NCBI GenBank assembly: GCA_965218975.1
Contig: OZ244717.1
Location: forward strand, 234,205 to 298,204
DNA: 64,000 nt
Source of the DNA: Candidatus Oxydemutatoraceae bacterium
Lineage (GTDB): Bacteria > Pseudomonadota > Gammaproteobacteria > Poriferisulfidales > Oxydemutatoraceae
Direction: 5' to 3'
The notes beneath the pieces are model-generated. The model was not told the origin of the DNA and ran no database searches. It saw only the letters and a list, made by a program, of their open reading frames with translations. The position numbers and the translations under genes were made by a program. Positions 2,141 through 61,979 of this stretch are shown here, in pieces; position 1 is the stretch's first letter; each line of letters starts with the position of its first letter.

Positions 2141-3110
2141 GTATTGTACGATGTATTGTACGATGCCACCCTAGTGGAATTCTTGAAGAGCTTCTAGGGA
2201 AGCGTTCGGCAGTAACATTCGGACCGGTGCTTTCTGTCCGTTGTCGGCATGAGGGCGGTGCAGGGTGAGACGCGCCCGGAAAACCGAACGGTTTTCAGCG
2301 GCAAACGACCCGACAAGGACGTCGGGCTGGTGCTCATTGACAGAACCAAGTCTCGTCATGGACGAGCAGGGTAAGACGCGCCCGGAAAACCGAACGGTTT
2401 TCAGCGGCGAACGACCCGACAAGGACGTCGGGGCTGGAGCTTGTTGACAGAACCCAATCGCGTCATGGGTGAGACGCGCCCGGAAAACCAATTGGTTTTC
2501 AGCGGTGAACGACCCGACAAGGACGTCGGGGCTGGAGCTTGTTGACAGAACCCAGTCCGTCATGGACGACAGGCACTTTGCCGACAATCCGGCACAATCC
2601 GCCGACAACCCACCAACAAACACAAAACGGTTTCACAACCGGTCATTGAATGCTTGCATATCGGTAAATAGCAGGTCTTCCGCATGATCGATACAATCTT
2701 CTTGGACCGTGCTGACAACGCACAATCGTATCCAGGGCGATGCAATGCCCAGGATTGCCGGATACTGTGCTTTGAAGTAACTCAGCTTGTACGTGCGACG
2801 ATGCTTGAACGGTCGTGCAAACTGCTCAACCCTCCCTGCCGATAGGCCAGGGGCGTCATGCATACAGGGTCGAACGACTGACCTTGAATGCGTTCGGGAG
2901 TTACAACTATCCCAAAATGAGGGCATCATATTTCTGTTGAAGCTTAGAGTGCTCATGAGCCTCCATTTTTGAAGCAAAATTGGCTCATATAGAAACCTTT
3001 GATGCGGTGGCCGATGTGCTGGTATTGCATGCCGGTCACCTTTTTATTGACGTCCAAGAATCCAGTATGTATCTGGGCACGTACACATAAGTGTATGAGT
3101 CCACCACAGC
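2141..3110 (-). mobile_element. Degenerate IS481-family element, minus orientation. Contents: a 3'-end inverted repeat with a duplicated tip (2141-2185), three internal palindromic repeat units, a transposase remnant with an internal deletion (2633-2977), a leader with RBS, and the left-end region at about 3040-3110.
   Basis: The 3' end ...HRPHADNGQKAPVRMLLPNASLEALQEFH followed by CCCTAGTGGAATTC / GGTGGCATCGTACA is the same terminus seen at 10801-10830, 16235-16262, 41680-41702 and 44960-44990. The rve C-terminal remnant VQEDCIDHAEDLLFTDMQAFNDRL matches 45266-45937. The 5' leader ...gggagttacaac...aatgagggcatcatatttctgttgaagcttagagtgctcatgagcctccat recurs at 44880-44950 and 46200-46300. Confidence 0.6.
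2265..2625 (-). repeat. Three tandem copies of a ~100-bp palindromic (REP-like) unit plus the conserved tail GCCGACAATCCGGCACAATCCGCCGACAA.
   Basis: Unit: ...GAGACGCGCCCGGAAAACCGAACGGTTTTCAGCGGCGAACGACCCGACAAGGACGTCGGGGCTGG.GCTTGTTGACAGAACC...GTCATGG. It contains two hairpins: GAAAACCG-AA-CGGTTTTC and CCCGAC-aaggac-GTCGGG. The same unit occurs at 7290-7990, 10640-10800, 41460-41600, 45060-45265 and 45820-46080. Confidence 0.8.
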
Positions 3111-3382
3111 TGCACATTAGCGTTGTTGGATGACAGCCTGAAACGGGGTTCAATCCCAGTCTTTGTGTGCGGGCATAATCCGTTGTACCGAACCAACCGG
3201 TCCGCCGGTTTTTCATTGAAACGATCAAGGTCCTCATGATAATCAACGTATTGCCTCTGAACGGTGTGATTAAACCGTGTTAGACGGGATGAGCGAAAGC
3301 AGCGCGTTTTGACAGAATGCTTGACTCTTTCTTGGGTAACATTCTTCCGGTAAAACTCCGAGTTTCGGACCTTCTATCTCTG

Positions 3383-5415: not shown

Positions 5416-6978
5416 ATGACGGTAAAGCGAACGAAGAGCAGTAAAACTGTTGAGGAAGAAACACAACCTGATTGGGAAAAGTCACCCGGGCGGGTGAGCC
5501 CAAGAGAGCGGCAACCGTTTATTACAGGCGTTGATTCTTTCGCCTTTGAAGCCCCCGTTCAAAGAGCAGGCGGTTCAACCAAGACGATGGGGCGAAAAAC
5601 GCAGCCCGCAGGAAGAATCGGAGGTTCGGAGAATATGCGCATCGCAGACGGTCGTCGTGCTGTTGATAACAGGGCTGTCAAGCGACACTCTGAACGGACC
5701 GACTCATGGCGGGCATCAATCAATCGTTTGAAGTCGGAAGCGGGCCTGCCAGATCAGGCGGCTTGTCGCGCCTCAAATGAGTTAAAGAGTCGGTCAAGCG
5801 GAAGAATTTCGGCGCTATGGTTATTATTGCTGATAGCGATCGTCGGCATCGGGCCTTGGCAATCGGGTATTTGCGATTCATTGTCCGAACCCGGTCAATC
5901 AGTCAAACAAGCGCAATGGCTGCTGAAAGAACTTGGCTACGACGTTGTGCCGGACGGTATCTTAGGCCCCCGGACGAAAGCCGTCATCCGCAATTACGAA
6001 CGCGAAAACAATATGGTTGAGACCGGGCAAGTCACTGTCGAATTAATTGCATCGCTGCAAGCAAAGCCTAAACAAAAAGGCAAAGTATTCCGGGATTGCG
6101 CGGAATGCCCGGAAATGATCGTGATTCCGGCCGGCTCATACCGGATGGGTTCGCCTGCGCATGAGGTGGGGCGCTATAGTGATGAAGGCCCGGTCCATCG
6201 CGTGACGATCGCAAAGCCGTTTGCAGTAGGACGTTATGAAGTCATGCGCGCCGAATTCGCCCATTTTGCGGATGAGGTGGGATTTTTGCAGGAGGACGAA
6301 AATTGCGATTGGTTGAATCCGCTGGAGCCGGAGTTCCGTCAAGGCGAGCGCGATCCTGTGGTATGCGTGATGGGATTTTGGCCGGAGGACGAAAATTGCG
6401 ATTGGTTGAATCCGCTGGAGCCGGAGTTCCGTCAAGGCGAGCGCGATCCTGTGGTATGCGTGGATTGGAACGACGCGCAGGCATATGCAGAGTGGCTGTC
6501 AAGGAAGACCGGAAAGGCGTACCGGCTGTTGAGTGAATCGGAATGGGAGTATGCGGCACGCGGAGGGACGAGCACGGCACGATACTGGGGGGAGCACGAG
6601 GATGAGCAGTGCCGGTATGCGAACGGGATAGATGCGGCTTATAAGAAACATAACCCTAGTTTGAAGTATCCAGTAGCTCCATGTAACGACGGCCATGTGT
6701 ATACATCTCCGGCGGGTTCGTTCTTACCGAACGAGTACGGTTTGTACGACATGCTCGGGAATGTCAATGAGTGGGTAGAAGACTGCTGGAATGATGATTA
6801 TGCCGCAGCGCCGTCCGATGGCAGTGCATGGTTGCAGGGTGATTGTTCCGCTCGTATGTTCCGCGGCGGGTCGTGGGGCGACATTCCGAGGTATCTGCGT
6901 TCTGCGATCCGCTACGCGTACACCACCGGAGACCGGGACGACTATATCGGTTTTCGAGTCGCTAGGACATTGGATTGA
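5416..6978 (+). CDS. Membrane-anchored protein with a peptidoglycan-binding domain and a formylglycine-generating-enzyme (FGE/SUMF1) domain. The N-terminal ~120 aa are disordered.
   Basis: RBS AAAGGAGGcgcgaaATG. Transmembrane segment ISALWLLLLIAIVGIGPW. PG_binding_1-like segment LLKELGYDVVPDGILGPRTKAVIRNYERENNMVETGQVT. FGE-domain blocks: GSYRMGS, VHRVTIAKPFAVGRYEVMRAEF, DAQAYAEWLSRKTGKAYRLLSESEWEYAARGG, YGLYDMLGNVNEWVEDCW, RGGSW, GFRVAR. Confidence 0.75.
   Translation: MTVKRTKSSKTVEEETQPDWEKSPGRVSPRERQPFITGVDSFAFEAPVQRAGGSTKTMGRKTQPAGRIGGSENMRIADGRRAVDNRAVKRHSERTDSWRASINRLKSEAGLPDQAACRASNELKSRSSGRISALWLLLLIAIVGIGPWQSGICDSLSEPGQSVKQAQWLLKELGYDVVPDGILGPRTKAVIRNYERENNMVETGQVTVELIASLQAKPKQKGKVFRDCAECPEMIVIPAGSYRMGSPAHEVGRYSDEGPVHRVTIAKPFAVGRYEVMRAEFAHFADEVGFLQEDENCDWLNPLEPEFRQGERDPVVCVMGFWPEDENCDWLNPLEPEFRQGERDPVVCVDWNDAQAYAEWLSRKTGKAYRLLSESEWEYAARGGTSTARYWGEHEDEQCRYANGIDAAYKKHNPSLKYPVAPCNDGHVYTSPAGSFLPNEYGLYDMLGNVNEWVEDCWNDDYAAAPSDGSAWLQGDCSARMFRGGSWGDIPRYLRSAIRYAYTTGDRDDYIGFRVARTLD
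6291..6462 (+). repeat. Perfect in-frame tandem duplication inside the FGE-domain CDS. Two identical 79-bp segments at 6291-6369 and 6384-6462 give a 93-bp (31-aa) period.
   Basis: GGAGGACGAAAATTGCGATTGGTTGAATCCGCTGGAGCCGGAGTTCCGTCAAGGCGAGCGCGATCCTGTGGTATGCGTG appears twice. The protein reads EDENCDWLNPLEPEFRQGERDPVVCV-MGFWP-EDENCDWLNPLEPEFRQGERDPVVCV. Confidence 0.9.
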
Positions 6979-7244
6979 ATCTTGAAGCTTGGTATCTTGC
7001 GATGGGTGACGGAGCCTTGCCCCGGCTGATTTCTCTGCAGCTGAGGATAGTTCGTTGAGGCAGGCTTCGTGTAGATGCGGGCATGCCTTGGCGCTGAGTA
7101 TTTTCATCTTGAGCGAGTAGTCGCATAACGCCGGATACATACGGGACTCACGGCTTAATCTAAATCGGTTTGCCGTTTCGGGGGAAACTACGGACCGGAT
7201 GTCACCGGGCGCATTCTCGGCAGCCCTAAGCTCTTCGAACCGAT

Positions 7245-7990
7245 GAAACCGTTTTGTGTTTGTTGGCGGATTGTGCCGGATTGTCGGCAAAGTGCCTGTC
7301 ATCCATGCCGCGACTAGGTTCTGTCAACAAGCCCCAGCCCCGACGTCCATGTCGGGTCGTTCGCCGCTGAAAAGCAATTGCTTTTCCGGGCGCGTCTCAC
7401 CCTGACGAGACTGGGTTCTGTCAACAAGCCCCAGCCTCGACGTCCTTGTCGGGTCGTTCACCGCTGAAAACCAATTGGTTTTCCGGGCGCGTCTCATCCA
7501 TGCCGCGACTGGGTTCTGTCAACAAGCCCCAGCCCAGACGTCCATGTCGGGTCGTTCGCCGCTGAAAAGCAATTGCTTTTCCGGGCGCGTCTCACCCTGA
7601 CGAGACTGGGTTCTGTCAACAAGCCCCAGCCTCGACGTCCTTGTCGGGTCGTTCACCGCTGAAAACCAATTGGTTTTCCGGGCGCGTCTCATCCATGCCG
7701 CGACTGGGTTCTGTCAACAAGCCCCAGCCCAGACGTCCATGTCGGGTCGTTCGCCGCTGAAAAGCAATTGCTTTTCCGGGCGCGTCTCACCCTGACGAGA
7801 CTGGGTTCTGTCAACAAGCCCCAGCCCCGACGTCCTTGTCGGGTCGTTCACCGCTGAAAACCAATTGGTTTTCCGGGCGCGTCTCACCCATAACGAGACT
7901 TGGTTCTGTCAATGAGCGCCAGCCTCGACGTCCTTATCAGGCCGTTCGCCGCTGAAAACCGATCGGTTTTCCGGGCGCGTTTCATCCCTG
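7245..7990 (+). repeat. Tandem array of palindromic REP-like units: three full 195-bp periods plus a partial one. Each period is two diverged ~97-bp half-units. The array is preceded by the conserved tail GAAACCGTTTTGTGTTTGTTGGCGGATTGTGCCGGATTGTCGGCAAAGTGCCTGTC.
   Basis: ATCCATGCCG recurs at 7301, 7496 and 7691, a 195-bp period with near-perfect identity between periods. Half-units carry the hairpins GAAAAGCAATTGCTTTTC / GAAAACCAATTGGTTTTC and CCCGACGTCC.TGTCGGG, then CCGGGCGCGTCTCA. This is the same family as 2265-2625, in the opposite orientation. Confidence 0.85.
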
Positions 7991-8250
7991 CCCGAGTGTC
8001 CGCACGATTGCGTGCCTGATCGCGGATGCGCCGAATAAAATGCGCTGTATTCCGCAGCGGCTGAATGCCAAAGGACAAACAAAACGACTGTTCAAGCACC
8101 GTTGCAGGGTACGCAAGCCGAAACACTTCAAAGCATAGTATCCGGGGCATTGCATCGCCCTGGATACGATTGTGCGTTATCAGCACGGCCGCATTCCTGC
8201 GCCTGGCAGAATTTCGGCAACAGTAAAGTCTTTGAGCTAATGAAACCATT
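7990..8250 (+). pseudogene. IS481-family transposase fragment. It covers the region homologous to ...KDFKAQYPEHCIALDTIVRYQHG...AAFLRL, has an in-frame stop and frameshifts, and ends at the junction ...TCTTTGAGCTAATGAAACCATT, where the IS1595 element is inserted.
   Basis: Translation K-H-F-K-A-stop-Y-P-G-H-C-I-A-L-D-T-I-V-R-Y-Q-H-G matches the 45266-45937 transposase. The tail matches 41420-41450. Confidence 0.6.
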
Positions 8251-8335
8251 CGTGATTGTATAGTTGACACAAGTACGAATACATGGTACCAATACTGCAC
8301 TAAAATAGTCAATGGGATAGGCCGCTTGACTACAA

Positions 8336-8695
8336 ATGCAGCACTTACTTCGCGAAATTATTATATCCGCTACTGGTTTAAGTTTTGTCTGCGGTGTTGT
8401 GTTGGGGGTGTTAGTCATGTGGCTCCCTAAATTCATTAAACGTAGACTTTTGCGTAAGAAGGTAGAAGCTGCATACTCAATGCTTAGGATGGTATGTGAG
8501 CCTAAAACTTTGAACCCTGCTCAACTTGGCAACAGAGAATACATGATTTCTGAATCCAGGGATCTTGTTAATGCAATTAGTCTTAAAAGCGCAGGTTTTC
8601 GTCCACCTCAAAAATGTGATCGTAGCGAAAAGTCTTTGAATGAATGGTTTACTTTTCTCCAAGATGTTCGAATTGAATTAGCATCTTGGTTTTGA
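8336..8695 (+). CDS. Hypothetical small membrane protein; passenger ORF 1 of the IS1595-family element.
   Basis: 119-aa ORF with one transmembrane segment (IIISATGLSFVCGVVLGVLVMWL). No family is recognisable and there is no strong RBS. Confidence 0.35.
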   Translation: MQHLLREIIISATGLSFVCGVVLGVLVMWLPKFIKRRLLRKKVEAAYSMLRMVCEPKTLNPAQLGNREYMISESRDLVNAISLKSAGFRPPQKCDRSEKSLNEWFTFLQDVRIELASWF

Positions 8696-8773
8696 TTTAT
8701 AAGGATGACTTGTTTTCCCTAATAGGATATTTAGGTACTCAGTTAATAGAAGTAAACATGAACTACAATTAAG

Positions 8774-9004
8774 ATGCATACGGGTTTGAGTGTACCAAAG
8801 GCTGATAACCAGACAATTCTAAATTGGAAGTATGATATTGAAAATGCTTCTGTGCTATATGGAACACGTATGGGTGATTTGAAAATCCGGTTAATCACTA
8901 CAAGAATGGTAACAGAGGATAGACAGGACTGGCTAACCAAGAATGACTTGTGGGATGTATTAGATTCATACAGGGGTAATCATGTGGGGGATGGGGGTAA
9001 GTAA
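8774..9004 (+). CDS. Hypothetical protein; passenger ORF 2.
   Basis: 76-aa ORF, weak RBS, no recognisable domain. Confidence 0.25.
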   Translation: MHTGLSVPKADNQTILNWKYDIENASVLYGTRMGDLKIRLITTRMVTEDRQDWLTKNDLWDVLDSYRGNHVGDGGK

Positions 9005-9008
9005 AAAA

Positions 9009-9575
9009 ATGAGAGTTATTTTGCTGGCCATGGTCATGATGATAGTGATCTTTGTTCTCTCTGCGTGTTACATCACACCTTACATCACACCGGACTGGCC
9101 CCGGTTGAAGGAATTTTCTGAACATCAGGTAAGGTGGAAATCATACGAGACCACGCGCTACCGGATGCGACTTGAGCGAAACTGTTTTTGCGGTGAAGAT
9201 TATCTACGGCCACTCATTGTTGAAGTTCAGGTGGGGAAGACGATGGAGTTGCCTGTATACGGCAGTAAAGAATTTTTACAGCCTCGTACAACTGTAGTCC
9301 GAATCGAAGATGTAGAGTCGGCCGTATACGAGGATGATGGAAAGCCAGTCCCTTTGGACGAGCTCCAAAGGATTGCATCAATCGATTCCCTGTTCCATAG
9401 GATATACATTGCAAGTTTACGGAATCCAAGCCTTACTCAGCGCATCATGGATGACCTGGTACAGGTTGATTACAATGCCGAGTACGGCTACCCAGAGTTT
9501 GTGGTATTTGATTCAGATGCGATGACTGATGCTTACATTAGCTACGATGTTGAACTTTTGGATATAATCCGTTGA
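9009..9575 (+). CDS. Hypothetical lipoprotein; passenger ORF 3.
   Basis: MRVILLAMVMMIVIFVLSAC has the LSAC lipobox. An SD-like GGGGGTAAG lies 8-10 nt upstream. The ORF is 188 aa with no recognisable family. Confidence 0.5.
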   Translation: MRVILLAMVMMIVIFVLSACYITPYITPDWPRLKEFSEHQVRWKSYETTRYRMRLERNCFCGEDYLRPLIVEVQVGKTMELPVYGSKEFLQPRTTVVRIEDVESAVYEDDGKPVPLDELQRIASIDSLFHRIYIASLRNPSLTQRIMDDLVQVDYNAEYGYPEFVVFDSDAMTDAYISYDVELLDIIR

Positions 9576-9702
9576 ATAAGTATGGCTATAGGTAAATACT
9601 TGAGCCTCGAAGAAGCTCGCAAAAAGAATTTGCTGGATCGTTTTGCCAAGGAACATCCATCCGTAGCGGACGGGCGTTTCTGGCCTTTGCTTAATTCTAT
9701 AA

Positions 9703-10560
9703 TTAAAGGGAAGCAATCAAGTCAGGAAACATCTGTTCAGGCTTGTCCCGATAGTTGTAGCGAAACTCAAACTCCTTCAGATACTTCCGAAGATGCTTCT
9801 TAGACACATGGATATGTGTACCACGAATGCTCAACTTAAGGCGTGCCCAAAAACCTTCAATGCTATTGACATGAGAGCCACCGCTTACCCATTTGCCAGC
9901 ACCATGATTGACCCTCTTATGCTCAAACCCTTCTTTGTCCAGCCCGGAGTAAGAACGAAGCTCATCCGTATGGACTGTGCTTCCCTGCTCAACATTTTCC
10001 TTAATGATCGACTGCAAAGTGCGCTTTTTGACGTTCGGAACAATTTTGGTCATTACATCCCCATCCCTGTCCAACATGCCAAAGGCTATAGCCTTGTTCG
10101 GAGCACCGCGACCGCGCTTTCCGCCAGAAGTCTTACCGCCAATATAGGTTTCGTCAGCTTCAACATGCCCGTCAAGAGGGTTTTCACCGTCCGTATCAGA
10201 CATGTGCTCACGTATCTTGTGAGCCATTCTCAAAGCAGTTGGATAGGCAACTCCAAGCTGGCGTTGCAGTTCCAAGGCGGGCACTCCGTGTCTTGTGGTG
10301 GTGAACAAGTAAATAGCATAGAACCACTTCTGCAAGGGGGTATGGGAGTTTTCAAAGATCGTTCCTACCATCGGATGAATTTGATGTCCGCACCAAGCAC
10401 ACCCATAAGCAGTGTCACGTTTGACTCTGTGAAACTTCCCGTGCTTCCCGCACTTGGGGCAGTCCATAGTCTCCCCATGCTGCTTGTGCATCAGGAACTC
10501 AAGACAGGCTTCATCATCCGGGAACTGTTTCATAAACTCTTGAATTGTTGTGGGTTTCAT
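9703..10560 (-). CDS. IS1595-family DDE transposase with an N-terminal zinc ribbon.
   Basis: CPKCGKHGKFHRVKRDTAYGCAWCGHQ zinc ribbon. Blocks DGHVEADETYIGG, VHTDELRSYSGL, HKRVNH, NSIEGFWARLK and FRYNYR are typical of the ISXO2/IS1595 group. RBS AGGAGatacaccATG. Confidence 0.85.
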   Translation of the reverse strand: MKPTTIQEFMKQFPDDEACLEFLMHKQHGETMDCPKCGKHGKFHRVKRDTAYGCAWCGHQIHPMVGTIFENSHTPLQKWFYAIYLFTTTRHGVPALELQRQLGVAYPTALRMAHKIREHMSDTDGENPLDGHVEADETYIGGKTSGGKRGRGAPNKAIAFGMLDRDGDVMTKIVPNVKKRTLQSIIKENVEQGSTVHTDELRSYSGLDKEGFEHKRVNHGAGKWVSGGSHVNSIEGFWARLKLSIRGTHIHVSKKHLRKYLKEFEFRYNYRDKPEQMFPDLIASL

Positions 10561-10626
10561 GGTGTATCTCCTATCGTTGAAGAAATATTACCATGAATAC
10601 TTACTTGTGTCAACTATATAATCACG

Positions 10627-10830
10627 AAACCATTTTGTGTTTGCTGCCGGATTGTCGGCGGATTGTGCCGGATTGTCGGCAAAGTGCCTGTCACCCATGA
10701 CGAGACTTGGTTCTGTCAATAAACCCCAGCCTCGACGTCCTTGTCAGGTCGTTCGCCGCTGAAAAGCAATTGCTTTTCCGGGCGCGGCTCACCCTGCAAG
10801 AATCCCATTTAAGGTGGCATCGTACAAAGT
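10627..10830 (+). repeat. One REP-like palindromic unit followed directly by the IS481-family 3' inverted repeat (AATCCCATTTAAGGTGGCATCGTACA). This is the distal part of the IS481 remnant split by the IS1595 insertion.
   Basis: The sequence continues the 8243-8250 junction. It carries the tail TTGTGTTTGCTGCCGGATTGTCGGCGGATTGTGCCGGATTGTCGGCAAAGTGCCTGTC, then a unit with the GAAAAGCAATTGCTTTTC hairpin, then the inverted repeat. Confidence 0.75.
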
Positions 10831-15945: not shown

Positions 15946-16262
15946 ATGAATACTTTTGTATATCTTCTTAATGCGGCTTCCAATCCATGTGTCCGCTCAA
16001 GGCGTGGTTTCGTCTGTGGAATGCGATTCTTACCCCTTGAGCGTTTCAACCGTACTCTGCAAAAAGACTTTGCGGACCACAATGAGGAACTATTGTTTAC
16101 GAATTCGGATAAATTCAACGAGCGTTTATGGTCATATTCGGAGTGGTACAATATGCGCCGACTGCATGCCGACAACGGACAGAAAGCACCGATCCGAATG
16201 TTACTGCCGGGCGCTTCCCTCAAAGCTCTTTAAAAATCCCATTTAGGGTGGCATCGTACAGC
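15946..16262 (+). pseudogene. IS481-family transposase C-terminal fragment plus the 3' inverted repeat.
   Basis: ERFNRTLQKDFADHNEELLFTNSDKFNERLWSYSEWYNMRRLHADNGQKAPIRMLLPGASLKAL, then AAAATCCCATTTAGGGTGGCATCGTACAG. Confidence 0.7.
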
Positions 16263-18024: not shown

Positions 18025-18199
18025 ATCCCAGCCGGCGCGATATTCCTTACAGCGGTTCGCTACCGCCTCAGATTGATTCCTAGCGCGAAATAAGTTTACC
18101 GACACTGTACAGTTTTCGGTTTGTTTGGTTTACGGACGACTCATCTGCGGACCCTTTGTCATCAAGCAGTAGCTGACCCATCCCAAGGAGCCGAAAATG

Positions 18200-18440
18200 A
18201 ACGCGCATATCAAACGTTTGACCGAACCGTGCAGGAAGATTGTATCGATCAAGACCTATTATTCACCAATATCAAAGCATTCAATGACCGGTGATGTGAG
18301 TATTAGAGTTGACCGTAATCTGCACCCGTCCGCATGACGGCAACGGACAGAAAGCGCCGATGATCCGAATGTCGTGCCGGACACTTCCTCCGAAGCGCTG
18401 CAAAAATCCCATTTAGAGTGGCATCGTATAGTATTCATGT
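18200..18440. mobile_element. Scrambled IS481-family fragments: a transposase C-terminal piece (...DCIDQDLLFTNIKAFNDR) and a 3' inverted repeat (AAAATCCCATTTAGAGTGGCATCGTATAG).
   Basis: Sequence identity to the other IS481-family ends in this window. Confidence 0.55.
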
Positions 18441-41204: not shown

Positions 41205-41702
41205 CGAGATCAGATATGCAGTATCAACACATTGGCCACCGCATCACCTGTCTGCGTGGAACGCACAGGCAGATATGATGCCCTATTATTTTGGAAGAGT
41301 TGTAGCTCCCGAACGCATTCAAGGTCGGTCGCAGTACTTTGTACCGCTGGCGGCGGCGGACCTGGCCGCAATTGATTCAGCGTGAAATCAAACGTCTGCG
41401 CCAAGATCATTTGAATCTCGGCAGCAGTAAAATCTTTGAGCTAATGAAACCGTTTTGTGTTTGGTGGCGATGCTCGGCACAGTGTTTGTCATCCATGACG
41501 AGACTTGGTTCTGTCAACAAGCCCCAGCCCCGACGTCCTTGTCGGGTCGTTCGCCGCTGAAAACCGATCGGTTTTCCGGGCGCGTCTCACCCTGCACCGC
41601 CCTCATGCCGGCAACGGACAGAAAGCACCGATCCGAATGTTACTGCCGAACGCTTCCCTCAAAGCACTTCAAAAATCCCATTTAGGATGGCATCGTACAT
41701 GA
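41205..41702 (+). mobile_element. MITE-like deletion derivative of the IS481-family element: left-end region and transposase N-terminal HTH, one REP-like unit, the last ~35 codons of the transposase, and the 3' inverted repeat.
   Basis: ...FKVGRSTLYRWRRRTWPQLIQREIKRLRQDHLNLGSSKIFELMKPF, then GAAACCGTTTTGTGTTTGGTGGCG..., a palindromic unit, then HRPHAGNGQKAPIRMLLPNASLKALQKSHLGWHRT, then AAAAATCCCATTTAGGATGGCATCGTACAT. Confidence 0.7.
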
Positions 41703-41771: not shown

Positions 41772-43196
41772 ATGAATCAATCAGCATTAAACAAACAAAT
41801 AAATAAAGAGCAGATTGATAGTTTGAAAAATGACGCAAAAGCTCTTTCAGCTTTTTTACAAGATCGGAGCGATGGCGCAATTATTTATGTACTAAAAAAG
41901 TTAGGGAGACTAAAGAATGGATATAACAAGCAGCCATTACTAAATCTTTTAAACAATAGTAACGAGACAATCAGGTCGCTTGCAATAAAAAATCTTGCAA
42001 AAATAAGTGATACTTCTTTATTAAACACTTTTATAGAATTTGCTAAACAAGATGAAAGCAGCGAAGTTAGACGGGAGTCCGTTTCCGCTATTGGGAGGTT
42101 AAGAAATGAAAAAACGATTCCGGTGCTGACTCAATTGTTGTCGGATAAAGATCCGAAAGTTGTCATGCAAGCTATAAGGGGATTACTTGTTTTTTCAAAA
42201 AAAAGCCAAGTAAGGGGAGAATTATCAAGATTGCTTGATCATCCGAATGAATTAATCAAAGAAGTTATCAGTAAAGAAATAAATGGGGCAAGCCATAGAT
42301 CGAAAGATAATGGGAAGCATGATGAGTTTCCGGTTTATCTTAAGAATACGATTGTTCACGGTAATGTTGTAGAGATATTAAAACACGTTCCTGATGAGTC
42401 TGTTCATCTCACTTTTACTTCACCACCTTATTATAATGCCAGAAATTATTCAATTTACCAAAGTTACAATGAGTATTTGCAGTTTCTAGAAGAAGTTTTT
42501 AAGGGAATTCATCGGGTTACAAAAGAAGGCAGATTTTTTATACTTAATACATCACCGATCATTATTCCAAGGATAAGCAGATCTCACGCTAGCAAAAGGT
42601 ACCCTATCCCTTATGATATTCATCCGTTATTAATAAAAATGGGATGGGAATTTATTGATGATATTGTGTGGGTAAAACCAGAAGCAAGTGTGAAAAATAG
42701 AAATGCGGGTTTTCTGCAGCACAGGAAGCCATTGGCTTATAAACCAAATGCGATTTCTGAAATGTTAATGGTTTATAGAAAAGAAACGGACAAGTTAATT
42801 GATTGGAATATGCATAAGTATGGTCGGGGTAAAGTTGAGAGGAGTAAGGTTACAGGCAAATATGAAACTACAAATGTTTGGTATATTGACCCGACTTTTG
42901 ATAGGGTCCATAGTGCAGTTTTCCCTTTAGAGTTATGTGATCGTGTTATCAAATATTATTCATTTGTTGATGATTTAATTTTTGACCCGTTTGCAGGGAG
43001 CGGAACTCTTGGCAAAGCAGCCGTTAATTTAAACCGACATTTCTTTTTAACGGAAAAAGACTCAAGATATGTCAGTTATATGAAAGAAGATTTAATTAAG
43101 GGGTATGGCTTATTTAACGGGAGAGACTCGCAACCGAACTTCGTAGATATTAATAGTTTCATAACTTTAATTAAAGAAAAATATGACAATAACTGA
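41772..43196 (+). CDS. Type II DNA methyltransferase (beta-class N4-cytosine/N6-adenine) with an N-terminal HEAT/PBS-lyase repeat domain.
   Basis: Motif IV LTFTSPPYYNARNY precedes motif I IFDPFAGSGTLGKAA. The N-terminal ~170 aa carry repeated HEAT-like units (NETIRSLAIKNLAKI, ESSEVRRESVSAIGRL, SDKDPKVVMQAIRGL). The gene is strongly AT-rich and overlaps the next ORF by 14 nt. Confidence 0.7.
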   Translation: MNQSALNKQINKEQIDSLKNDAKALSAFLQDRSDGAIIYVLKKLGRLKNGYNKQPLLNLLNNSNETIRSLAIKNLAKISDTSLLNTFIEFAKQDESSEVRRESVSAIGRLRNEKTIPVLTQLLSDKDPKVVMQAIRGLLVFSKKSQVRGELSRLLDHPNELIKEVISKEINGASHRSKDNGKHDEFPVYLKNTIVHGNVVEILKHVPDESVHLTFTSPPYYNARNYSIYQSYNEYLQFLEEVFKGIHRVTKEGRFFILNTSPIIIPRISRSHASKRYPIPYDIHPLLIKMGWEFIDDIVWVKPEASVKNRNAGFLQHRKPLAYKPNAISEMLMVYRKETDKLIDWNMHKYGRGKVERSKVTGKYETTNVWYIDPTFDRVHSAVFPLELCDRVIKYYSFVDDLIFDPFAGSGTLGKAAVNLNRHFFLTEKDSRYVSYMKEDLIKGYGLFNGRDSQPNFVDINSFITLIKEKYDNN

Positions 43197-44094
43197 ACAG
43201 ACAGTAAAAAATATAATAAGGAATCTTTTAAAAGGAAAGGATTACAGAATTGAAATTATTACTCTTATTGATACTAGATTTTTACAGTTCGCCATTTATT
43301 TTTTCAAGCTTATAGTTGACGCAAAATTAAAAAGCGAAGATATCACTGTCGATTGGTATAAAAAATCTTTTTTGAATCCGAGTTTGCCGACAAAAGAAAT
43401 CGCCATCAATTCCGGCTTAAATAAAAAGACAATTCATAACATGTTTAATTCCTCGACAAAAGAAATCGTCATTGATGCTTCAAATAAACATTATGATCTT
43501 TTACATAAATCCATTAAAGATTTAGTTGATGCTAAACACGAGATTGAATTAGTTTTAACAATTAAATTTAAAGGAATTAGCGTTGATCTTAATATCAATG
43601 AAAGCTTAATTGTAATAAATGCCTTAGCTGTGAAAAGATCAGAGTTGAGGGGTGGGTTTTGGAGCACTGCCGGGAAAAGAGTTGAAAAACCATTGATGCA
43701 GACACTTTGTAAGCTGTACAGTGTATCCGAAAGAAACTATTTTTTAAAAATAAAAGGAGAAAACACGAAAGATGACTTTGAGAGAGAAGTAGACTTTTAT
43801 TTGGTGGGCGGAAACAACCGACATAAATGCGAAGTAAAATTAATGGGACGAGGAAATCCGGAAAGTGCCGATGCCGTTATAGCAAGGGGGAGTAAGGTTT
43901 TTGTGGCCGATAAATTATCCGATACTAATAAAAAGCAGTTGGATAGTTTAAATGTTGAGTGGGTTGAATTAAGGAGTAGTGGTGGATTTGAGAAATTTGA
44001 TACGGTATTAGAAAATTTGAAAATTCCACATATAAGATCACTCAGTAACATAGATGAAAGATTAGAAGTAGCATTGAAAGAGATTTTTCATTAA
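43183..44094 (+). CDS. Candidate Type II restriction endonuclease, partner of the upstream methyltransferase.
   Basis: 303-aa ORF translationally coupled to the methyltransferase. Composition is AT-rich and foreign. No recognisable family, so the endonuclease assignment is by context only. Confidence 0.4.
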   Translation: MTITEQTVKNIIRNLLKGKDYRIEIITLIDTRFLQFAIYFFKLIVDAKLKSEDITVDWYKKSFLNPSLPTKEIAINSGLNKKTIHNMFNSSTKEIVIDASNKHYDLLHKSIKDLVDAKHEIELVLTIKFKGISVDLNINESLIVINALAVKRSELRGGFWSTAGKRVEKPLMQTLCKLYSVSERNYFLKIKGENTKDDFEREVDFYLVGGNNRHKCEVKLMGRGNPESADAVIARGSKVFVADKLSDTNKKQLDSLNVEWVELRSSGGFEKFDTVLENLKIPHIRSLSNIDERLEVALKEIFH

Positions 44095-44404: not shown

Positions 44405-46420
44405 TCAGTTTCCTCCGGGGCGCGACTTGCTCGGAAGCGGGAACGGAGCTTCGTCCCATTTCAAACCTACGCTACGGTAGGTCCTGTTGACGTCCGCACT
44501 CGCGCCGGATCCGCCACCCTGTCCCGCTTGATAGACCCGGTCGAGATTCAGTAGAACGCCGCCGCTTCGCTCCAGCCCGTACACCGTGGCGCGCTTGCTC
44601 TGCGGCTGTGCGATACGCGCCAGTACCAGCTCGCGCAGGATGCGATTGGCCGCCATACGGCGCGCACCCAACACCTAGTTCCATCCGAGGTGCGAATAAA
44701 TCTGCGCGAACGCCTCGTGCACCCCAAGCGTCAGACGCGTTTCCTCACGGCATTTAGCCAGATCCGCCGATGCCTCTTGCACGGCGCTTTGCCGCGGTCA
44801 TGCAAGGCGCTGAGCCCAGTGCGGCGATAACGCTGGCGCCAGCGGTACAAAGTACTGCGACCGACCTTGAATACGTTCGGGAGTTATAACCTCCCAAAAT
44901 AATAGGGCAGTATATTTCTGTTGAAGCTTAGAATGCTCATGAGCCTCCATTATTGAAGTATACGATGCCACCCTAAATGGGATTTTTGAAGCGCTTCGAG
45001 AGAAGCGTTCGACAGTAACATTCGGGGATCGGTGTTTTCTGTCCGTTGCCGACATGAGGGCGGTGCGGGGTGAGACGCGCCCGGAAAACCAATTGGTTTT
45101 CAGCGGTGAACGACCCGACAAGGACGTCGGGGCTGGGGCTTGTTGACAGAACCCAGTCGCGTCATGGACGACAGGCACTTTACCGACAATCCGGCACAAT
45201 CCGCCGACAATCCGGCACAATCCGCCGACAATTCGCACAATCCACCACCAAACTACAAAATGGTTTCATAACCGGTCATTGAATGCTTCCGTATCGGTAA
45301 ATAGCAGGTCTTCTGCATGATCGATACAATCTTCTTGGACGGTGCGGCTGAAGCGCTTGATGTGCGCGTTCATTTTCGGACACTTGGGATAGGTCAGCCA
45401 CTGCTCAATCACGGGCGATTCCCGGATGAGCCGGGCAAACTGTCCTTGAAACTCACTACCGCCGTCCGTCAAGATATATTTTACCGGTGGCGGTAGCACC
45501 GCCAGGGTCAAGCGCAGAAATGCGGCAGCACTGCGGCTGTTACAGCAGTTGGTTGCCACTGCCGTTGCCATGCGGGTATAGACATCAATGGCCGTTAAGA
45601 CGGTGCGGCGCATCCCGTGCTGATAACGCACAATTGTATCTAGGGCGATGCAATGCTCCGGATACTGTGCTTTGAAGTCTTTCGGCTTGTGTGCCCTGCA
45701 ACGGCGCTTAAACGGTCGTTTTGTTTGTCCTTTGGCATTCGTGCGCTGCGGAACACGGCGCATTTTATCCGGCGCATCCGCGGTCAGGCGCGCAATCGTG
45801 CGGACACTCGGGCAGGGTGAGACGCGCCCGGAAAACCGATCGGTTTTCAGCGGCGAACGACCCGACAAGGACGTCGGGGCTAGGGCTTGTTGACAGAACC
45901 AAGTCTCGTCATGGGTGAGACGCGCCCGGAAAACCAATTGGTTTTCAGCGGCGAACGACCCGACAAGGACGTCGGGGCTGGGGCTTGTTGACAGAACCCA
46001 GTCGCGTCATGGACGACAGGCACTTTGCCGACAATCCGGCACAATCCGCCGACAATCCGGCAACAAGCGCAAAACGGTTTCACACTGAATCGGTTGGCTA
46101 GGTCCGTCGGCGCCTCTTGCGCGGCGCTCTGGTGCGGCCATGCAAGGCGCTGAACCCAATGCGGCGATAGCGCTAGCGCCAACAGCACTAAAGTACTGCG
46201 ACCGACCTTAAATGCGTTCGGGAGTTACAACCCTCCTAAAATAATAGGGCAGCATATTTCTGTTGAAGTTTAGAGCGCTCATGAGCCTCCATTCTTGAAG
46301 CTAAATTGGCTCATATAGAAACCTTTGATGCGGTGGCCGATGTGTTGATATTGCATATCGGTCACCTTTTTGAGTTAAGCCGTGAGTCCCATACGTATCT
46401 GGCACTATACAGTGCCAAGC
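44405..46420 (-). mobile_element. Two abutting degenerate IS481-family copies in minus orientation. The first is a full-length but disrupted copy (44960-46420: left end at 46420, transposase remnants, two REP-unit insertions at 45060-45265 and 45820-46080, 3' inverted repeat at 44960-44990). The second is a 5'-truncated copy (44405-44955) containing the transposase N-terminal HTH region.
   Basis: 3' end: ...HRPHVGNGQKTPIPECYCRTLLSKRFKNPI, then GGTGGCATCGTATAC. Left end: GGCACTGTATAGTGCCAGATACGTATGGGACTCACGG (reverse complement of 46384-46420). HTH-like translation FKVGRSTLYRWRQRY and ARRMAANRILRELVLARIAQP in 44405-44900. Confidence 0.65.
45266..45937 (-). pseudogene. IS481-family transposase integrase-core (rve) remnant, truncated by REP-unit insertions.
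   Basis: LTAIDVYTRMATAVATNCC...ILTDGGSEFQGQFARLI...VQEDCIDHAEDLLFTDTEAFNDRL is the DDE/rve core of IS481-type transposases. The N-terminus reads through repeat sequence. Confidence 0.65.
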
Positions 46421-46557: not shown

Positions 46558-47748
46558 TTATTTTTTACTTGAAGATGTACCGGATAGCTTGTTCAATGCT
46601 TTATCTATTAAGGCTATTGCCTCATCAATGTTTTGATCGGAAGTATTAAATCCAAGACTGAATCTGATTGACGACTCAGCCTCATCACTTGTCAACCCTA
46701 TGGCTTTGAGAACATGAGATGGCTCTTGAGTGCCCGAAGCGCATGCCGAACCGATTGATGCCGCAAGACGTGGTTGCAACACATTCAGGATATCATGTGC
46801 TGTAAACCCCTTGAATCCGATGTTGGCATTGCCCGGGTGTCTGTATTCGACAGGGGGGCCGCACAGCGTCATGGGCCATGACAACGCCAACAGTTTGTCG
46901 ACAAATCGGTCCCGGTGTCTGCACAATTGTTCACGCTTATTCCTTGCTTGATCAGAACATAAGTATTCTGCTGCCGCTCCCATTCCAACGCATAACGGTG
47001 TAGGCAAAGTTCCGGAACGCAGTCCGTTCTGTTGTCCGCCACCGTAGATCAGAGGTTCAATGCTTTCTTGTAAGTCACGACGGATATAGAGCGCGCCAAT
47101 TCCCTTGGGACCATATATTTTATGCCCTGAAAGACTCAACAGGTCGGTATCATTTGCAAAGTTTTGCATATCTATCGCAATAGGCGCCTGAGCGGCATCA
47201 CAATGAAAGATGGCGCCGGATTGTCTGATTAAGCCGGATAAATTCGCGATATCCTGTATGGTTCCTATCTCATTGTTTACCGCCATAATCGAGACGATCA
47301 GCACGTCATCAGTGAGGCTGCGTTCCAAGTCCGGCAGTAAGATGTGTCCGGATTCGTCAACCGGAAGCAATTCGACCTGAAAACCGAGCTGCTCGTTCAA
47401 TACGCGCCCGACGGCGAGCACACTCTTGTGCTCAATTGCGCTAAGAAGGATTTTTTTTCTTGCAGCGCCCTCTGCCGCCGCATGTTTTGCTAACCCTAGC
47501 AAAGCTAAATTGTTGGACTCGGTTGCCCCGGACGTGAACACGATTTCATCGGCATCGGCGGCGATCAAGCGGGCAACTTGCTGCGCCGCTTTTTCCACAG
47601 CGCGAAAACTTTCCCAACCAGGCGCATGATCTGCCGAATGCGGACTGGCATAGGATTCCGAGAAGTACGGACGCATTTCACGCAACACTCTGTCGGAAAC
47701 CGGCGTCGTTGCCTGATAGTCAAAATACAGATATTCTGATGCGTTCAT
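46558..47748 (-). CDS. sspA: Cysteine desulfurase (class V aminotransferase, NifS/IscS-like). Candidate SspA/DndA-type sulfur donor of the adjacent phosphorothioation module.
   Basis: PLP blocks LSLSGHKIYGPKGIGALYIR and TSGATESNNLAL. Active-site loop GSACASG. Start taken at MNASEYLYFDY (47748). Divergent from the DUF4007 gene. Confidence 0.7.
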   Translation of the reverse strand: MNASEYLYFDYQATTPVSDRVLREMRPYFSESYASPHSADHAPGWESFRAVEKAAQQVARLIAADADEIVFTSGATESNNLALLGLAKHAAAEGAARKKILLSAIEHKSVLAVGRVLNEQLGFQVELLPVDESGHILLPDLERSLTDDVLIVSIMAVNNEIGTIQDIANLSGLIRQSGAIFHCDAAQAPIAIDMQNFANDTDLLSLSGHKIYGPKGIGALYIRRDLQESIEPLIYGGGQQNGLRSGTLPTPLCVGMGAAAEYLCSDQARNKREQLCRHRDRFVDKLLALSWPMTLCGPPVEYRHPGNANIGFKGFTAHDILNVLQPRLAASIGSACASGTQEPSHVLKAIGLTSDEAESSIRFSLGFNTSDQNIDEAIALIDKALNKLSGTSSSKK

Positions 47749-47849
47749 CGGTAAGTCTTCAATCTTGAAATATCCTATAATACCAGAGACAGTCTTCAGG
47801 AATATAACCTTGAGACTATAATACATGTTCCGATAACAGGACGACGAAT

Positions 47850-48824
47850 ATGACACGACGCGGCCCCCTATGTAGACAGGATTACAAACCGCACTTTTTA
47901 GGACACGAAACATTTCCCCTGCGCTATGGGTGGCTGAAAAAAGTCTATGACCGTGTGTCCCGCACCGAGAGAAATAAAAACAACAAAGCCCTGTGTTGGG
48001 GTGATAACGCTATTGCCTTGTTTGGTGTCGGTAAAAATATGGTTGCGTCAATGCGCCATTGGTCAATTGCGGCGGGAATAATTGAAGAGCCTTTAGGCGC
48101 AAATAAGGTGATTACAACCAAGATTGGCCGACAACTGTTCGGCAACGGCGGCCTTGATCCTTACTTGGAGCACCAAACATCTCTATGGCTAATCCATTGG
48201 AAGCTGGCAACGGAGTGGAAAAAAAAGACCACTTGGTTTTGGGCTTTCAATCACTACTACGCCGTACAGTTTGAGCAGGATAAGTTTGTCAAAAGACTTG
48301 AGCGCCTGGCAAAACATCTCGGGTGGCCACATGCCGCACATAGGACCATCAAAAATGACGTTGTCTGTTTTATTCGAACCTATACGACTCATCCCCTTGC
48401 CTCAAAAACGGGATGCGATGATTTACTCGGGTCGCCCCTAGCAGAGCTAGGCCTCATAAAGCCGTTCTCTCGAAAGGGTGAGTTCAGATTTGTTCACGGC
48501 CCGAAATCAACCTTGGGCAAAGGCGCTTTTGTTTATGCTCTTCTTGAGTTTTGGTCAAATTTTTCTCCCGCTACTTCAACACTTTCGTTTGAGGCGATTA
48601 CCTACGAGCCCGGGTCGCCGGGACGCGCTTTTCTGCTTGATGAGAACGACGCGGCCGAGAGATTATCTGACATTGACGATATTACCGGCGGTGCGCTGCG
48701 GTGGTCGGAGACGGCAGGATTGAAGCAGGTCGTGCGGAACCCCGGCTTTGCGATAGATTCTGATTATGCTCTTCGGCTCATAAAAAATGATTATGACGAT
48801 TCTGCTTGCATGAAGGCAGCGTAG
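47850..48824 (+). CDS. sspB: DUF4007-like protein; candidate SspB of a single-strand DNA phosphorothioation system.
   Basis: N-terminal GHETFPLRYGWLKKVYD and the overall 324-aa size match my recollection of the DUF4007 family that defines SspB. It is first gene of an overlapping three-gene operon with a large P-loop ATPase and a PAPS-reductase-like protein. An HMM search is needed to confirm. Confidence 0.55.
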   Translation: MTRRGPLCRQDYKPHFLGHETFPLRYGWLKKVYDRVSRTERNKNNKALCWGDNAIALFGVGKNMVASMRHWSIAAGIIEEPLGANKVITTKIGRQLFGNGGLDPYLEHQTSLWLIHWKLATEWKKKTTWFWAFNHYYAVQFEQDKFVKRLERLAKHLGWPHAAHRTIKNDVVCFIRTYTTHPLASKTGCDDLLGSPLAELGLIKPFSRKGEFRFVHGPKSTLGKGAFVYALLEFWSNFSPATSTLSFEAITYEPGSPGRAFLLDENDAAERLSDIDDITGGALRWSETAGLKQVVRNPGFAIDSDYALRLIKNDYDDSACMKAA

Positions 48825-53662: not shown

Positions 53663-53668
53663 CGCCTC

Positions 53669-61978: not shown

Positions 61979-61979
61979 C

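Follow-up and report, generated by a model that had tools for sequence, protein, structure and literature searches.

A probable hairpin-bearing minisatellite embedded in transposase pseudogenes and probably dispersed with an IS481-type element in a sponge-associated gammaproteobacterium

A stretch of 64,000 nucleotides (the window) from the chromosome of a Candidatus Oxydemutatoraceae bacterium, a sponge-associated and sulfur-oxidising member of the Gammaproteobacteria, carries a short unit with two palindromes that is repeated, in places in tandem, within remnants of an insertion sequence (IS). How did such a repeat come to lie in these remnants, and does it have a role there? A sequence-only reading had proposed either a nested non-autonomous element that colonised the IS and is being amplified, or an array acting as a structured RNA or as a set of protein-binding sites. 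The analysis reported here leads to another answer: the unit is probably a hairpin-bearing minisatellite of a known general kind, here embedded in a transposase gene and dispersed with the IS.

The unit is 97/98 bp long and is present as 15 copies across six loci of the window (Table 1), in agreement with the first description of a unit of about 97 bp at six places. A 31-nt pattern of the unit matches 15 times in a scan of the window, where 0.00 matches are expected, and an nhmmer profile recovers exactly the same 15 copies and no degenerate extras. The six loci are paralogous and carry 1, 1, 1, 2, 3 and 7 units. Besides the main array, Tandem Repeats Finder delineates smaller arrays at 2263-2565 and 45815-46012. 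The copies thus have the features of a minisatellite or VNTR: a head-to-tail unit in the range of 10-150 bp with high identity, a copy number that differs among the six loci and palindromes inside the period. A short direct repeat, TCAYCC(A)TG, brackets a single unit, and two of the three reading frames of the unit are open. The sequence types of the first unit (F-type) and of the last unit (L-type) are preserved from array to array, as unequal exchange inside arrays would predict.

Table 1. Unit loci, modules and IS481-like remnants in the window
Feature	Position	Strand	Description
Unit locus	2261-2561	-	3 units
Unit locus	7308-7990	+	7 units
Unit locus	10700-10796	+	1 unit
Unit locus	41498-41594	+	1 unit
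Unit locus	45066-45162	-	1 unit
Unit locus	45813-46007	-	2 units
IS481-like copy B, diverged left end and N-terminal remnant	7120-7244	+	Ends ..LGSPKLFEPM, site-a left flank
Main-module head	7245-7307	+	GAAACCGTTTTGTGTTTG, two 11-bp repeats GGATTGTSNCG, then GCAAAGTGCCTGTCATCCATG; first 12 nt after G are the KPFC transposase codons
Main array	7308-7990	+	Seven tandem 97/98-bp units, order A-B-A-B-A-B'-L
Transposase core fragment (CPSVRTIA...LDTIVRYQHG)	7991-8188	+	Abuts last unit directly; right junction type ii
Second site-a left flank (..AAFLRL/AEFRQQ..SKVFELMKPF)	8189-8250	+	Rearrangement junction, cut by IS1595 insertion
Rest of the 8189-8250 module beyond the IS1595 element	10627-10796	+	Head 10627-10699 (three 11-bp repeats) and unit 10700-10796; IS right end next (..GGTGGCATCGTACA at 10826)
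Site-b module, IS copy A (3085-2157)	2261-2633	-	Head 2633-2562 and three units 2561-2261; flanks ..EAFNDRL on one side, HRPHADNGQ.. on the other
IS copy E module	41447-41594	+	Short head without 11-bp expansion and one unit
Module c/a, near-full-length IS copy F (46411-44959)	45813-46080	-	Head 46080-46008, F-type and L-type unit; CPSVRTIARL... comes next
Module b, IS copy F	45066-45266	-	Head 45266-45163 with six 11-bp repeats, unit 45162-45066, then HRPH...
IS481-like C-terminal remnant	16039-16260	+	Site b uninterrupted (FNERLWSYSEWYNMRRLHADNGQ); reveals what the module replaced
Second C-terminal remnant	18160-18430	+	Site b uninterrupted, degenerate

In the main array, Tandem Repeats Finder reports both a period of 97 bp repeated 7.0 times (7312-7990, 89% matches) and a period of 195 bp repeated 3.5 times (7299-7990, 95% matches), the latter as had been described from the sequence. 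The longer period is that of the A-B dimer, and the final unit is the most degenerate. At an offset of 195, a run of 290 bp (7342-7631 against 7537-7826) shows no difference at all, and 7405-7599 is identical to 7600-7794. This identity bears out the proposal that the array has been amplified and indicates that the amplification is recent; the main array would be the most recent expansion of the unit. As the chromosome is metagenome-derived, the copy number of this near-identical array could reflect mis-assembly.

All six unit loci of the window lie inside remnants of an IS481-type transposase gene, and elsewhere in the same 2.08-Mb genome a protein-based census, which sees units only in called ORFs, found 11 further unit-bearing ORFs, each of them (11/11) fused to transposase sequence. 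These ORFs bear out the earlier observation that the unit rides inside IS481-family copies, although units outside IS copies may exist in the rest of the genome. One unit-containing ORF, P0036, is encoded at 44801-45238, which places the window on the contig of 2,081,000 bp. The host element has inverted ends (TGTAYRGTGCC.. and ..GGCATCGTAYA), a length near 1 kb and a single transposase of the DDE (rve) type, some 300 aa long, and we take it to be IS481-like. Its fragments share 42-49% identity with transposases of 264-315 aa that carry PF00665 and PF13683, the alignments covering these transposases over their whole length; the rve match of the fragment itself stays under the Pfam cutoff (24 vs 32.6 bits). 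The near-full-length copy F measures 1453 bp, or about 1.0 kb once its two interruptions are subtracted. The closest transposases outside this genome (about 50% identity) are uninterrupted by such sequences. The transposase matches from this genome are all fragments, none longer than 157 aa, and stops and frameshifts interrupt the IS copies of the window; the IS481-type family is dead in this genome. Four other remnants of this IS lack the unit (16039-16260, 18160-18430, 44754-44958 and 3092-3277).

Every array is preceded on its 5' side by a head made of 17 bp, an 11-bp microsatellite repeated 1-6 times and GCAAAGTGCCTGTC. The sequence-only reading had noticed this constant part as a fixed tail shared by the copies; it is real, since a 33-mer of it recurs at five loci with at most one mismatch, the sixth (41447-41497) having a shorter, diverged version, and it is renamed head here because it lies 5' of the units. 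The identification of 7120-7244 as a remnant of IS copy B draws in part on the resemblance between 7215-7404 and 41416-41594. The possibility that the head is a degenerate partial unit was dropped, as the local alignment is not significant past a 9-nt junction, TCATCCATG. Head and units together form a module, with about 135 nt of inserted DNA, whose orientation is always that of the transposase pseudogene that it interrupts.

Modules are found at three sites of this gene. Alignment with the transposases of 42-49% identity leaves a gap of 6-7 residues at site a, where the module stands in for the codons between KPFC and CPSVRTI, and of 9 residues at site b, near the C-terminus, where it stands in for WEYLAWYNL; at site c, about 12 nt are replaced. 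Target nucleotides are missing at all three sites, the loss amounting to 12-25 nt per insertion. A single IS copy can carry modules at both sites c and a (P0033 and P0035), and site b is uninterrupted in P0023 and P0025 as well as in the C-terminal remnants. The same alignment identifies KPFC and CP as native residues: the left end of the module, AAACCGTTTTGT, consists of the 12 nt that encode K-P-F-C and aligns with homologous transposases. Modules at sites b and c also begin with these site-a codons, which implies that they are copies made from site a together with its IS flank rather than products of transposition. The module ends are constant in many contexts (left RTG/AAACC, right CACCCTG/), with at least three left flanks and at least five right flanks (HRPH, CPSVRTI, LQESHL, LTDGGSEF and RQAxxNLGSSK). 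In IS copy E, the left flank is that of site a and the right flank that of site b, pointing to a deletion of the DDE core between two module positions. This copy and the paired modules of P0033 and P0035 look like products of recombination. A TGA is found at the left junction of site b, and every module has a stop within its units or at the head-unit junction; these stop codons rule out an in-frame insertion of the Rickettsia palindromic element (RPE) or intein kind. At 45.9 kb and in P0026, no stop separates the F-type plus L-type dimer (195 nt, 65 codons) from the transposase frame, but the unit has two open frames out of three in any case.

Both hairpins that had been described are present in the unit, and they have evolved differently. 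The first palindrome, P1 (18 bp, GAAAACC-NNNN-GGTTTTC), is perfect in 15/15 units, pairs at 100% and occurs nowhere else in the window. The second, P2 (CCCGAC..GTCGGG), departs from perfect symmetry in a number of units and pairs at 94.9%, so that only P1 answers to the original description of two perfect hairpins. The same split appears when the hairpin potential is compared across copies. P1 has undergone two independent double substitutions and stayed symmetric: at both of its variable position pairs the two sides change together, as in the central AATT to GATC change, and the stem shows one compensated G-C/C-G swap; the chance of one such symmetric double substitution is about 0.03 per lineage. 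The centre is asymmetric (GTTC) in two units. P2, for its part, decays without compensation (4 broken and 3 wobble cells). Symmetric double substitutions in palindromes are a signature of template switching that requires no selection (PMC7202029, PMC8794818). Quasipalindrome template-switch mutagenesis, a mutational process and not a family of elements, would account for P1 staying perfect, and its symmetry is most simply explained by such hairpin-templated correction; it could also mark selection for a hairpin or a dimer-binding site instead of a mutational bias. A native quasi-palindrome of the transposase gene, AAACCGTTT, may be the source of P1.

The unit is private to this genome among the collections searched. 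Exact-pattern scans gave no match in species-representative genomes or in viral contigs, two independent patterns gave none in JGI metagenomes and BLAST gave none in plasmids and phages; in 80 loci of related sulfur-oxidiser genomes, the best match of the nhmmer profile reached only E = 1.3. Rfam 15 has no match at gathering score in the window and, for 7100-8100 at E <= 10, just a narK match of 13.9 bits (E = 8.8). A self-cleaving ribozyme and a fragment of a group II intron were discarded on this basis. An integron attC site was likewise set aside, as the consensus unit has neither a GTTRRRY nor an RYYYAAC core on either strand and no integrase is encoded nearby. The array contains no promoter or terminator consensus site, the region 6900-8400 having one of each downstream of the array, and a role as terminator or promoter was not retained.

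The constancy of the module ends could suggest a non-autonomous mobile element in its own right (MITE-, REP/REPIN- or IS200/IS605-PATE-like), mobilised by an enzyme whose gene lies elsewhere in the genome and repeatedly targeting the IS481 transposase gene. The same ends do recur in at least three left and five right contexts and at three or more positions of one gene, many small mobile repeats carry hairpins, and the least-expanded head forms with the P1 region an imperfect inverted repeat of 24 nt (17/24, 71%) that was equalled in 2/5000 shuffles, a post hoc test and hence suggestive only. Such an element is nevertheless unlikely, as the left 12 nt of the module are native transposase codons taken along to other sites and its target is replaced instead of duplicated. 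This inverted repeat, being subterminal, is the only one that a MITE could claim; neither terminal inverted repeats at the true module ends nor a target-site duplication were found, and the flanks differ from copy to copy. P1 and P2 are unrelated to each other, whereas an IS200/IS605 element has related hairpins at its left and right ends and would not cause the loss of target seen at a, b and c. On inspection, the stem feet (GCT/GAAAACC..GGTTTTC/CGG and GCC/CCGAC..GTCGGG/TCG) carry neither the GTAG nor the CGTC tag by which REPs are recognised (PMC3733652). Finally, 17/17 known contexts are IS481 sequence, always in gene orientation, which also speaks against the element favoured by the sequence-only reading. 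The precision of the ends still deserves attention: breakpoints set purely by random microhomology should be more scattered, and a dedicated cutting or joining activity is conceivable. The module would then be an undescribed kind of 'parasite of a parasite', a small hairpin-bearing cassette with the ends RTG/AAACC...CACCCTG/. An active process would copy it into the transposase genes of IS481 elements wherever short ends match, at the cost of 12-25 nt of target and of the activity of the IS, with P1 selected as a recognition or priming site; we regard this scenario as very improbable.

A function of the repeat itself has also to be considered. P1, perhaps with the whole array, could be a functional DNA site, either an operator-like palindrome for a dimeric protein (a host factor, an IS-encoded HTH protein or a methylase/restriction component), the array being a multi-site binding platform, or a cruciform affecting replication or supercoiling. 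The perfection of P1 in all units, its absence from the rest of the window and the symmetrical change of its two variable pairs fit this idea; since the AATT to GATC pair falls in the hairpin loop, the symmetry even agrees better with double-stranded DNA than with RNA pairing. There is, however, little chance that this is the explanation: the central and sixth stem positions are free to vary, so that any recognition would necessarily be loose, the two GTTC centres break the symmetry, the dead IS offers only pseudogenes as locations for the sites, whose number varies from 1 to 7, template switching is known to leave symmetric double changes behind (PMC7202029, PMC8794818), and no candidate binding protein was identified. 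Transcription of the units into a structured small RNA or a cis-regulatory RNA array is the least probable reading, and an extremely doubtful one. It could draw on the P1 stem present in all copies, with its compensated swap, and on multi-unit stretches whose folding surpasses that of shuffles (z = -3.5 and -5.3), as would be expected of any palindrome-containing repeat. For single units the advantage over shuffles is slight (z from -1.1 to -2.5), RNAalifold gives a covariation term of -0.27 kcal/mol with 1/29 pairs compensated, P2 is uncompensated, the array is devoid of promoter-like and terminator-like sites, the two strands are equivalent because of the palindromes, Rfam offers no matching family even at E <= 10 and every other genome searched lacks homologues. 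A further stem, CTGGG/CCCAG in the 5' part of the unit, was rejected, its variants being uncompensated and RNAalifold not predicting it. The RNA or protein-binding array of the sequence-only reading thus receives little support.

Among known systems, the unit appears structurally closest to Wolbachia VNTR-105, which can be considered a close precedent: each period of 105 bp contains two hairpins with 9-bp palindromic stems, and hairpin-triggered slippage together with concerted evolution is how its authors explained its expansion (PMC3287509). VNTR-105 and VNTR-141 share with the unit a period of about 100 bp, head-to-tail arrays of few copies, some with internal deletions, and an IS-rich host with a reduced symbiont genome (PMC3287509). 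The Wolbachia loci are single and intergenic, whereas the unit sits in a transposase ORF, is dispersed with the IS to at least 17 places, is preceded by a fixed non-repeated head and shows reassortment of its flanks.

Other families of small repeats are more distant. REPs are extragenic sequences of 20-40 bp associated with genes for RAYT (Y1) transposases. Of the roughly 90 window ORFs of at least 100 aa, roughly 30 were compared with Pfam, and these had no Y1 domain. Like REPs, BIMEs and REPINs, the unit has short GC-containing palindromes, many copies, some tandem clusters and a lineage-specific distribution, but it is 97 bp long with two unrelated palindromes, untagged, and confined to IS481 pseudogenes in the 6 loci of the window and the 11 ORF contexts, with no extragenic dispersal. 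Pneumococcal BOX elements (boxA-(boxB)n-boxC) are intergenic, always end in boxC and have complementary termini. The module resembles them in combining a fixed end module with a variable number of tandem internal units; it differs in lacking a fixed 3' module and in interrupting a gene. RPEs lie in frame in many different genes and are translated within functional proteins. Although the module is also a palindromic repeat of about 100-150 bp inside ORFs of a host-associated bacterium, it brings stops, replaces codons and is found in the transposase gene of one IS only.

Taken together, the unit is probably a genome-private, non-coding hairpin minisatellite that has hitch-hiked in IS copies, has been recombined among them and expands by slippage or unequal crossing-over, an account in which we place moderate confidence. 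The anatomy, the junctions, the copy numbers and the restriction to this genome are direct observations; the order of events and the mechanisms that we infer are as follows. The minisatellite would have been born inside an IS481-family transposase gene, between its KPFC and CPSVRTI codons (site a). It would then have spread passively, both by being carried along as module-bearing IS copies multiplied and by copying or recombination between IS copies, which may have placed the module with its 12 nt of site-a flank elsewhere in the gene. Recombination would also account for the new combinations of left and right flanks and for the loss of the DDE core between two direct modules. Changes in unit number would result from replication slippage or unequal crossing-over, which are favoured by the two palindromes per unit, the TCAYCC(A)TG bracket and the 195-bp dimer. 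The visible effects are that the transposase ORF is permanently broken and that a dead IS family is made more prone to rearrangement and deletion. On the whole, the unit seems to be a selfish or neutral piece of repetitive DNA and not a novel functional system.

These data have some practical consequences. The repeat is an annotation hazard, as it generates spurious short ORFs (e.g. P0003, P0010 and P0033-P0038), and near-identical arrays of this kind are prone to mis-assembly in genomes of sponge symbionts while offering a possible VNTR for strain typing. P1 is a caution against taking covariation in DNA palindromes as RNA structure. A new biological question would arise only if the precise module ends reflect a dedicated copying mechanism. 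The locus illustrates how a repeat may behave in a decaying symbiont genome: born in a transposase gene and multiplied by the IS, it then helps to destroy this IS, and it goes on expanding by slippage after the death of the IS family.

The window carries 15 copies of the 97/98-bp unit with its palindromes P1 and P2, distributed over six loci (table), the number given by the sequence-only reading. A 31-nt pattern across the main palindrome matches the window 15 times for 0.00 matches expected, and a profile built from the 15 units recovers exactly these and no degenerate copy in the window. According to Tandem Repeats Finder, the main array contains 7.0 copies of a 97-bp unit (7312-7990) or 3.5 copies of a 195-bp super-period (95% matches), with smaller arrays of that unit on the other strand (2263-2565 and 45815-46012). 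In arrays of at least two units, the first and the last units have distinctive sequences (ACTGGG, CCAATTGG and ..CCCATG for the first; ACTTGG, CCGATCGG or CCGTTCGG and ..CCCTG for the last). The seven-unit array has the order A-B-A-B-A-B'-L; its type A units carry a private palindrome variant, GCAATTGC, and the A-B dimer measures 195 bp. As 7405-7599 and 7600-7794 are identical and the sequence shows no difference over 290 bp at offset 195, the A-B dimer was very recently duplicated, which bears out both the 3.5 periods of 195 bp and the ongoing amplification suggested from the sequence alone.

Loci carrying the unit in the window
Positions	Strand	Units
2261-2561	-	3
7308-7990	+	7
10700-10796	+	1
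41498-41594	+	1
45066-45162	-	1
45813-46007	-	2

The 1 to 7 units of a module follow a head made of three parts, AAACCGTTTTGTGTTTG, an 11-bp microsatellite (GGATTGTSNCG) and GCAAAGTGCCTGTC(R)TCCATG, and the array always ends with ...GCGCGTCTCACCCTG. The head corresponds to what had been described as a fixed tail: it is indeed present at five loci with at most one mismatch, but it precedes the units and is shorter and diverged at 41.4 kb. Its microsatellite (GGATTGTCGGC / GGATTGTGCCG; 45183-45243, 10648-10680 and 46027-46059) counts 1 to 6 copies depending on the locus. On either side of a single unit stands a short direct repeat, TCAYCC(A)TG, found once at the end of the head and once at the end of the unit, the type of substrate that would give rise to a first tandem duplication. 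Outside of this 9-nt repeat, head and unit share no significant similarity; an imperfect 24-nt inverted match was found between the least-expanded head and the P1 region.

Flank translation, tblastn with full-length relatives, self-comparison of the window and protein alignment agree: all modules are embedded in pseudogenes of a single IS481-type transposase and share the orientation of that gene. Copy F of the IS, which is the most complete (46411-44959, minus strand, 1453 bp; ends TGTATAGTGCC.. and ..GGCATCGTATA), holds two modules, one in the N-terminal third, followed by CPSVRTIARL..., and the other between EAFNDRL and HRPHADNGQ. Protein alignment with intact relatives (P0004, P0006, P0008, P0013 and P0017; 42-49% identity) shows that the first occupies a 6-7-residue gap between KPFC and CPSVRTI (site a) and the second a 9-residue gap, WEYLAWYNL (site b). 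Two other remnants in the window (16.1 kb and 18.3 kb) and the proteins P0023 and P0025 of the same genome keep site b uninterrupted; therefore, about 25 nt were replaced by the module. Site c (after IQRE) is occupied at 46080 and in two other proteins of this genome, P0033 and P0034, with the replacement of about 12 nt; the native RQ(D/A)..NLGSSKIFELMKPFC resumes downstream of the array in P0033 and P0035. About 2 bp or less from the right end of copy F starts the left part of a further IS481-like element (G, 44754-44959), whose site c is uninterrupted; copies F and G are thus nested or adjacent. The right inverted end of copy A (..GGCATCGTACAATACATCGTACAATACAT) is overlapped by 2.2 repeats of a 12-bp motif, ATGTATTGTACG (2139-2165). 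At 58515-58530 (minus strand), about 220 bp upstream of dsrA, a short match to the conserved IS481-like left-end motif GATACATATTGGACTC may represent a further eroded remnant.

The boundaries of the modules are sharp: the left one is invariably RTG|AAACC and the right one falls at one nucleotide, CACCCTG|, in five contexts (HRPH, CPSVRTI, LQESHL, LTDGGSEF and RQAxxNLGSSK). In the four right contexts whose native sequence is known, a leucine codon (CTG, TTG or CTT) natively precedes the junction, so that junctions and donor share 2-5 nt as microhomology. Such precision nevertheless exceeds what is expected for random breakpoints and is the main evidence that the module could be a mobile element copied by a dedicated mechanism with defined ends. 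The first 12 nt of the head, AAACCGTTTTGT, encode K-P-F-C in the transposase frame, and the aligned residues are present in relatives (KPF in P0004; F-C in P0008, P0013 and P0017; W-C in P0006), so K-P-F-C is native IS sequence at site a. The same 12 nt stand ahead of the module at sites b and c, where they are foreign; the modules there thus derive from a site-a module that was copied along with adjoining transposase sequence. Ectopic recombination, gene conversion or template switching among IS copies would give such a product, whereas a transposase acting on the ends of an element would not. The loss of target nucleotides and the lack of target duplications and of true terminal inverted repeats at the modules point in the same direction, away from transposition. 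A mobile module, or "mobile cassette", is therefore unlikely, its most far-reaching form, a cassette actively copied into IS481 transposase genes, is very improbable, and the nested non-autonomous element proposed by the sequence-only reading is not supported.

In the copy at 41.2-41.7 kb, one unit separates a site-a left flank from a site-b right flank; the entire DDE core between two direct modules has been deleted. The rearrangement goes further in copy B (7.1-10.8 kb), where the left end and a diverged N-terminus are followed by the seven-unit module and a core fragment (7991-8188). At 8189, a junction with CTGCGC microhomology (..AAFLRL|AEFRQQ*) leads from the core back to the left flank of site a in the N-terminal region; then come a head, one unit and the far right end of the IS. 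This junction recurs in P0003, P0009 and P0031, so the rearranged form itself multiplied. An IS1595-family element (8251-10626) sits in the KPF codons of the second head of copy B, flanked by an 8-bp duplication (AAACCATT), and is thus younger than the module. This element, apparently intact, has 24-bp inverted ends, a transposase gene (9703-10560, minus strand; DDE_Tnp_IS1595 and zinc-ribbon domains) and two passenger ORFs (8336-8695, without Pfam match, and 8982-9575, DUF6174). The most likely mechanism, in which we have moderate confidence, can be viewed as follows: the unit would spread passively, along with IS copies and between them, and its copy number would change by slippage or unequal crossing-over.

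The 15 units were aligned, giving 13 distinct rows. In this alignment, the cells of P1 (GAAAACC-AATT-GGTTTTC) are 100% paired, whereas P2 (CCCGAC/GTCGGG) reaches 94.9%, with 4 broken and 3 wobble cells; of the two hairpins thought to be perfect, only P1 is. P1 underwent two symmetric double changes: a C-G pair became G-C at stem position six in 3 distinct rows, and the central AATT became GATC in 5 rows. Its only one-sided changes are a GTTC centre in two units; no compensation was found for P2 among the 13 rows. Across copies, hairpin symmetry is thus kept in P1 and decays in P2. In a simple simulation, a lineage with 10 random substitutions gains at least one compensated P1 pair with a probability of about 0.03. 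Two such events are hardly expected by chance, which implies that some process keeps P1 symmetric. Selection for a cruciform, a hairpin or a dimer-binding site is possible. A mutational process is favoured, as one double change falls at the would-be hairpin loop and intrastrand template switching is known to "correct" DNA palindromes (PMC7202029, PMC8794818). Whether treated as RNA or as single-stranded DNA, one unit folds only slightly better than shuffled sequences (z from -1.1 to -2.5), the RNAalifold covariation term is negligible, and no Rfam family matches, which argues against a structured RNA; no promoter- or terminator-like site was found within the array.

The closest structural analogue is VNTR-105 of Wolbachia, with a 105-bp period, two hairpins with 9-bp stems and 4-6 tandem copies, whose expansion was ascribed by its authors to hairpin-induced slippage and concerted evolution (PMC3287509). 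The unit has the defining features of such a hairpin-bearing minisatellite; unit and module lack tested defining features of REP/REPIN, MITE, IS200/IS605-type and Rickettsia-RPE-type repeats. What is unusual is its several positions within a transposase ORF, its fixed head and its dispersal by an IS.

The host is a sulfur-oxidising gammaproteobacterium, as indicated by a reverse-type dissimilatory sulfite reductase cluster (58750-63466; dsrA, dsrB, then small DsrEFH/DsrC-sized ORFs, dsrAB-EFHC-MK), in which dsrA was checked by Pfam and relatives and the other names follow from ORF size and order. Its DsrA is at best 87% identical to those of MAGs named Candidatus Oxydemutatoraceae or Candidatus Porisulfidus (sponge-associated, 1.6-2.1-Mb chromosomes). 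Elsewhere in the window, a low-GC island (41772-44094; 34% vs about 48%) encodes a type II restriction-modification pair (N4/N6 DNA methylase with HEAT repeats and CfrBI-like endonuclease) and is bracketed by module-bearing IS481 remnants (41.2-41.7 kb and 44.7-46.4 kb). A probable defence island (46558-58237) encodes a class-V aminotransferase (cysteine-desulfurase-like), DUF4007, a 1139-aa P-loop protein, an AAA_23 ATPase and a ResIII/SNF2 helicase with a PLD domain; this putative island resembles DNA-phosphorothioation-dependent restriction modules. The ORF 5416-6978 (FGE-sulfatase/peptidoglycan-binding protein) contains a 93-bp tandem duplication (6278-6462; 2.0 copies, 97% identical), in frame since it spans 31 codons.

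Besides P0036, encoded at 44801-45238, 11 ORFs of the same genome have unit-derived peptides (P0003, P0009, P0010, P0026, P0031-P0035, P0037 and P0038), and all 11 are fused to IS481-type transposase sequence, in agreement with the claim that the unit rides in IS481 copies. Searches of species-representative genomes, JGI metagenomes, viral contigs, plasmids and phages gave no hit to the unit, and the nearest transposase relatives elsewhere, about 50% identical, lack the module; within the genome, all transposase fragments are at most 157 aa. The repeat looks private to this genome, and the IS481-type family that carries it looks extinct there.
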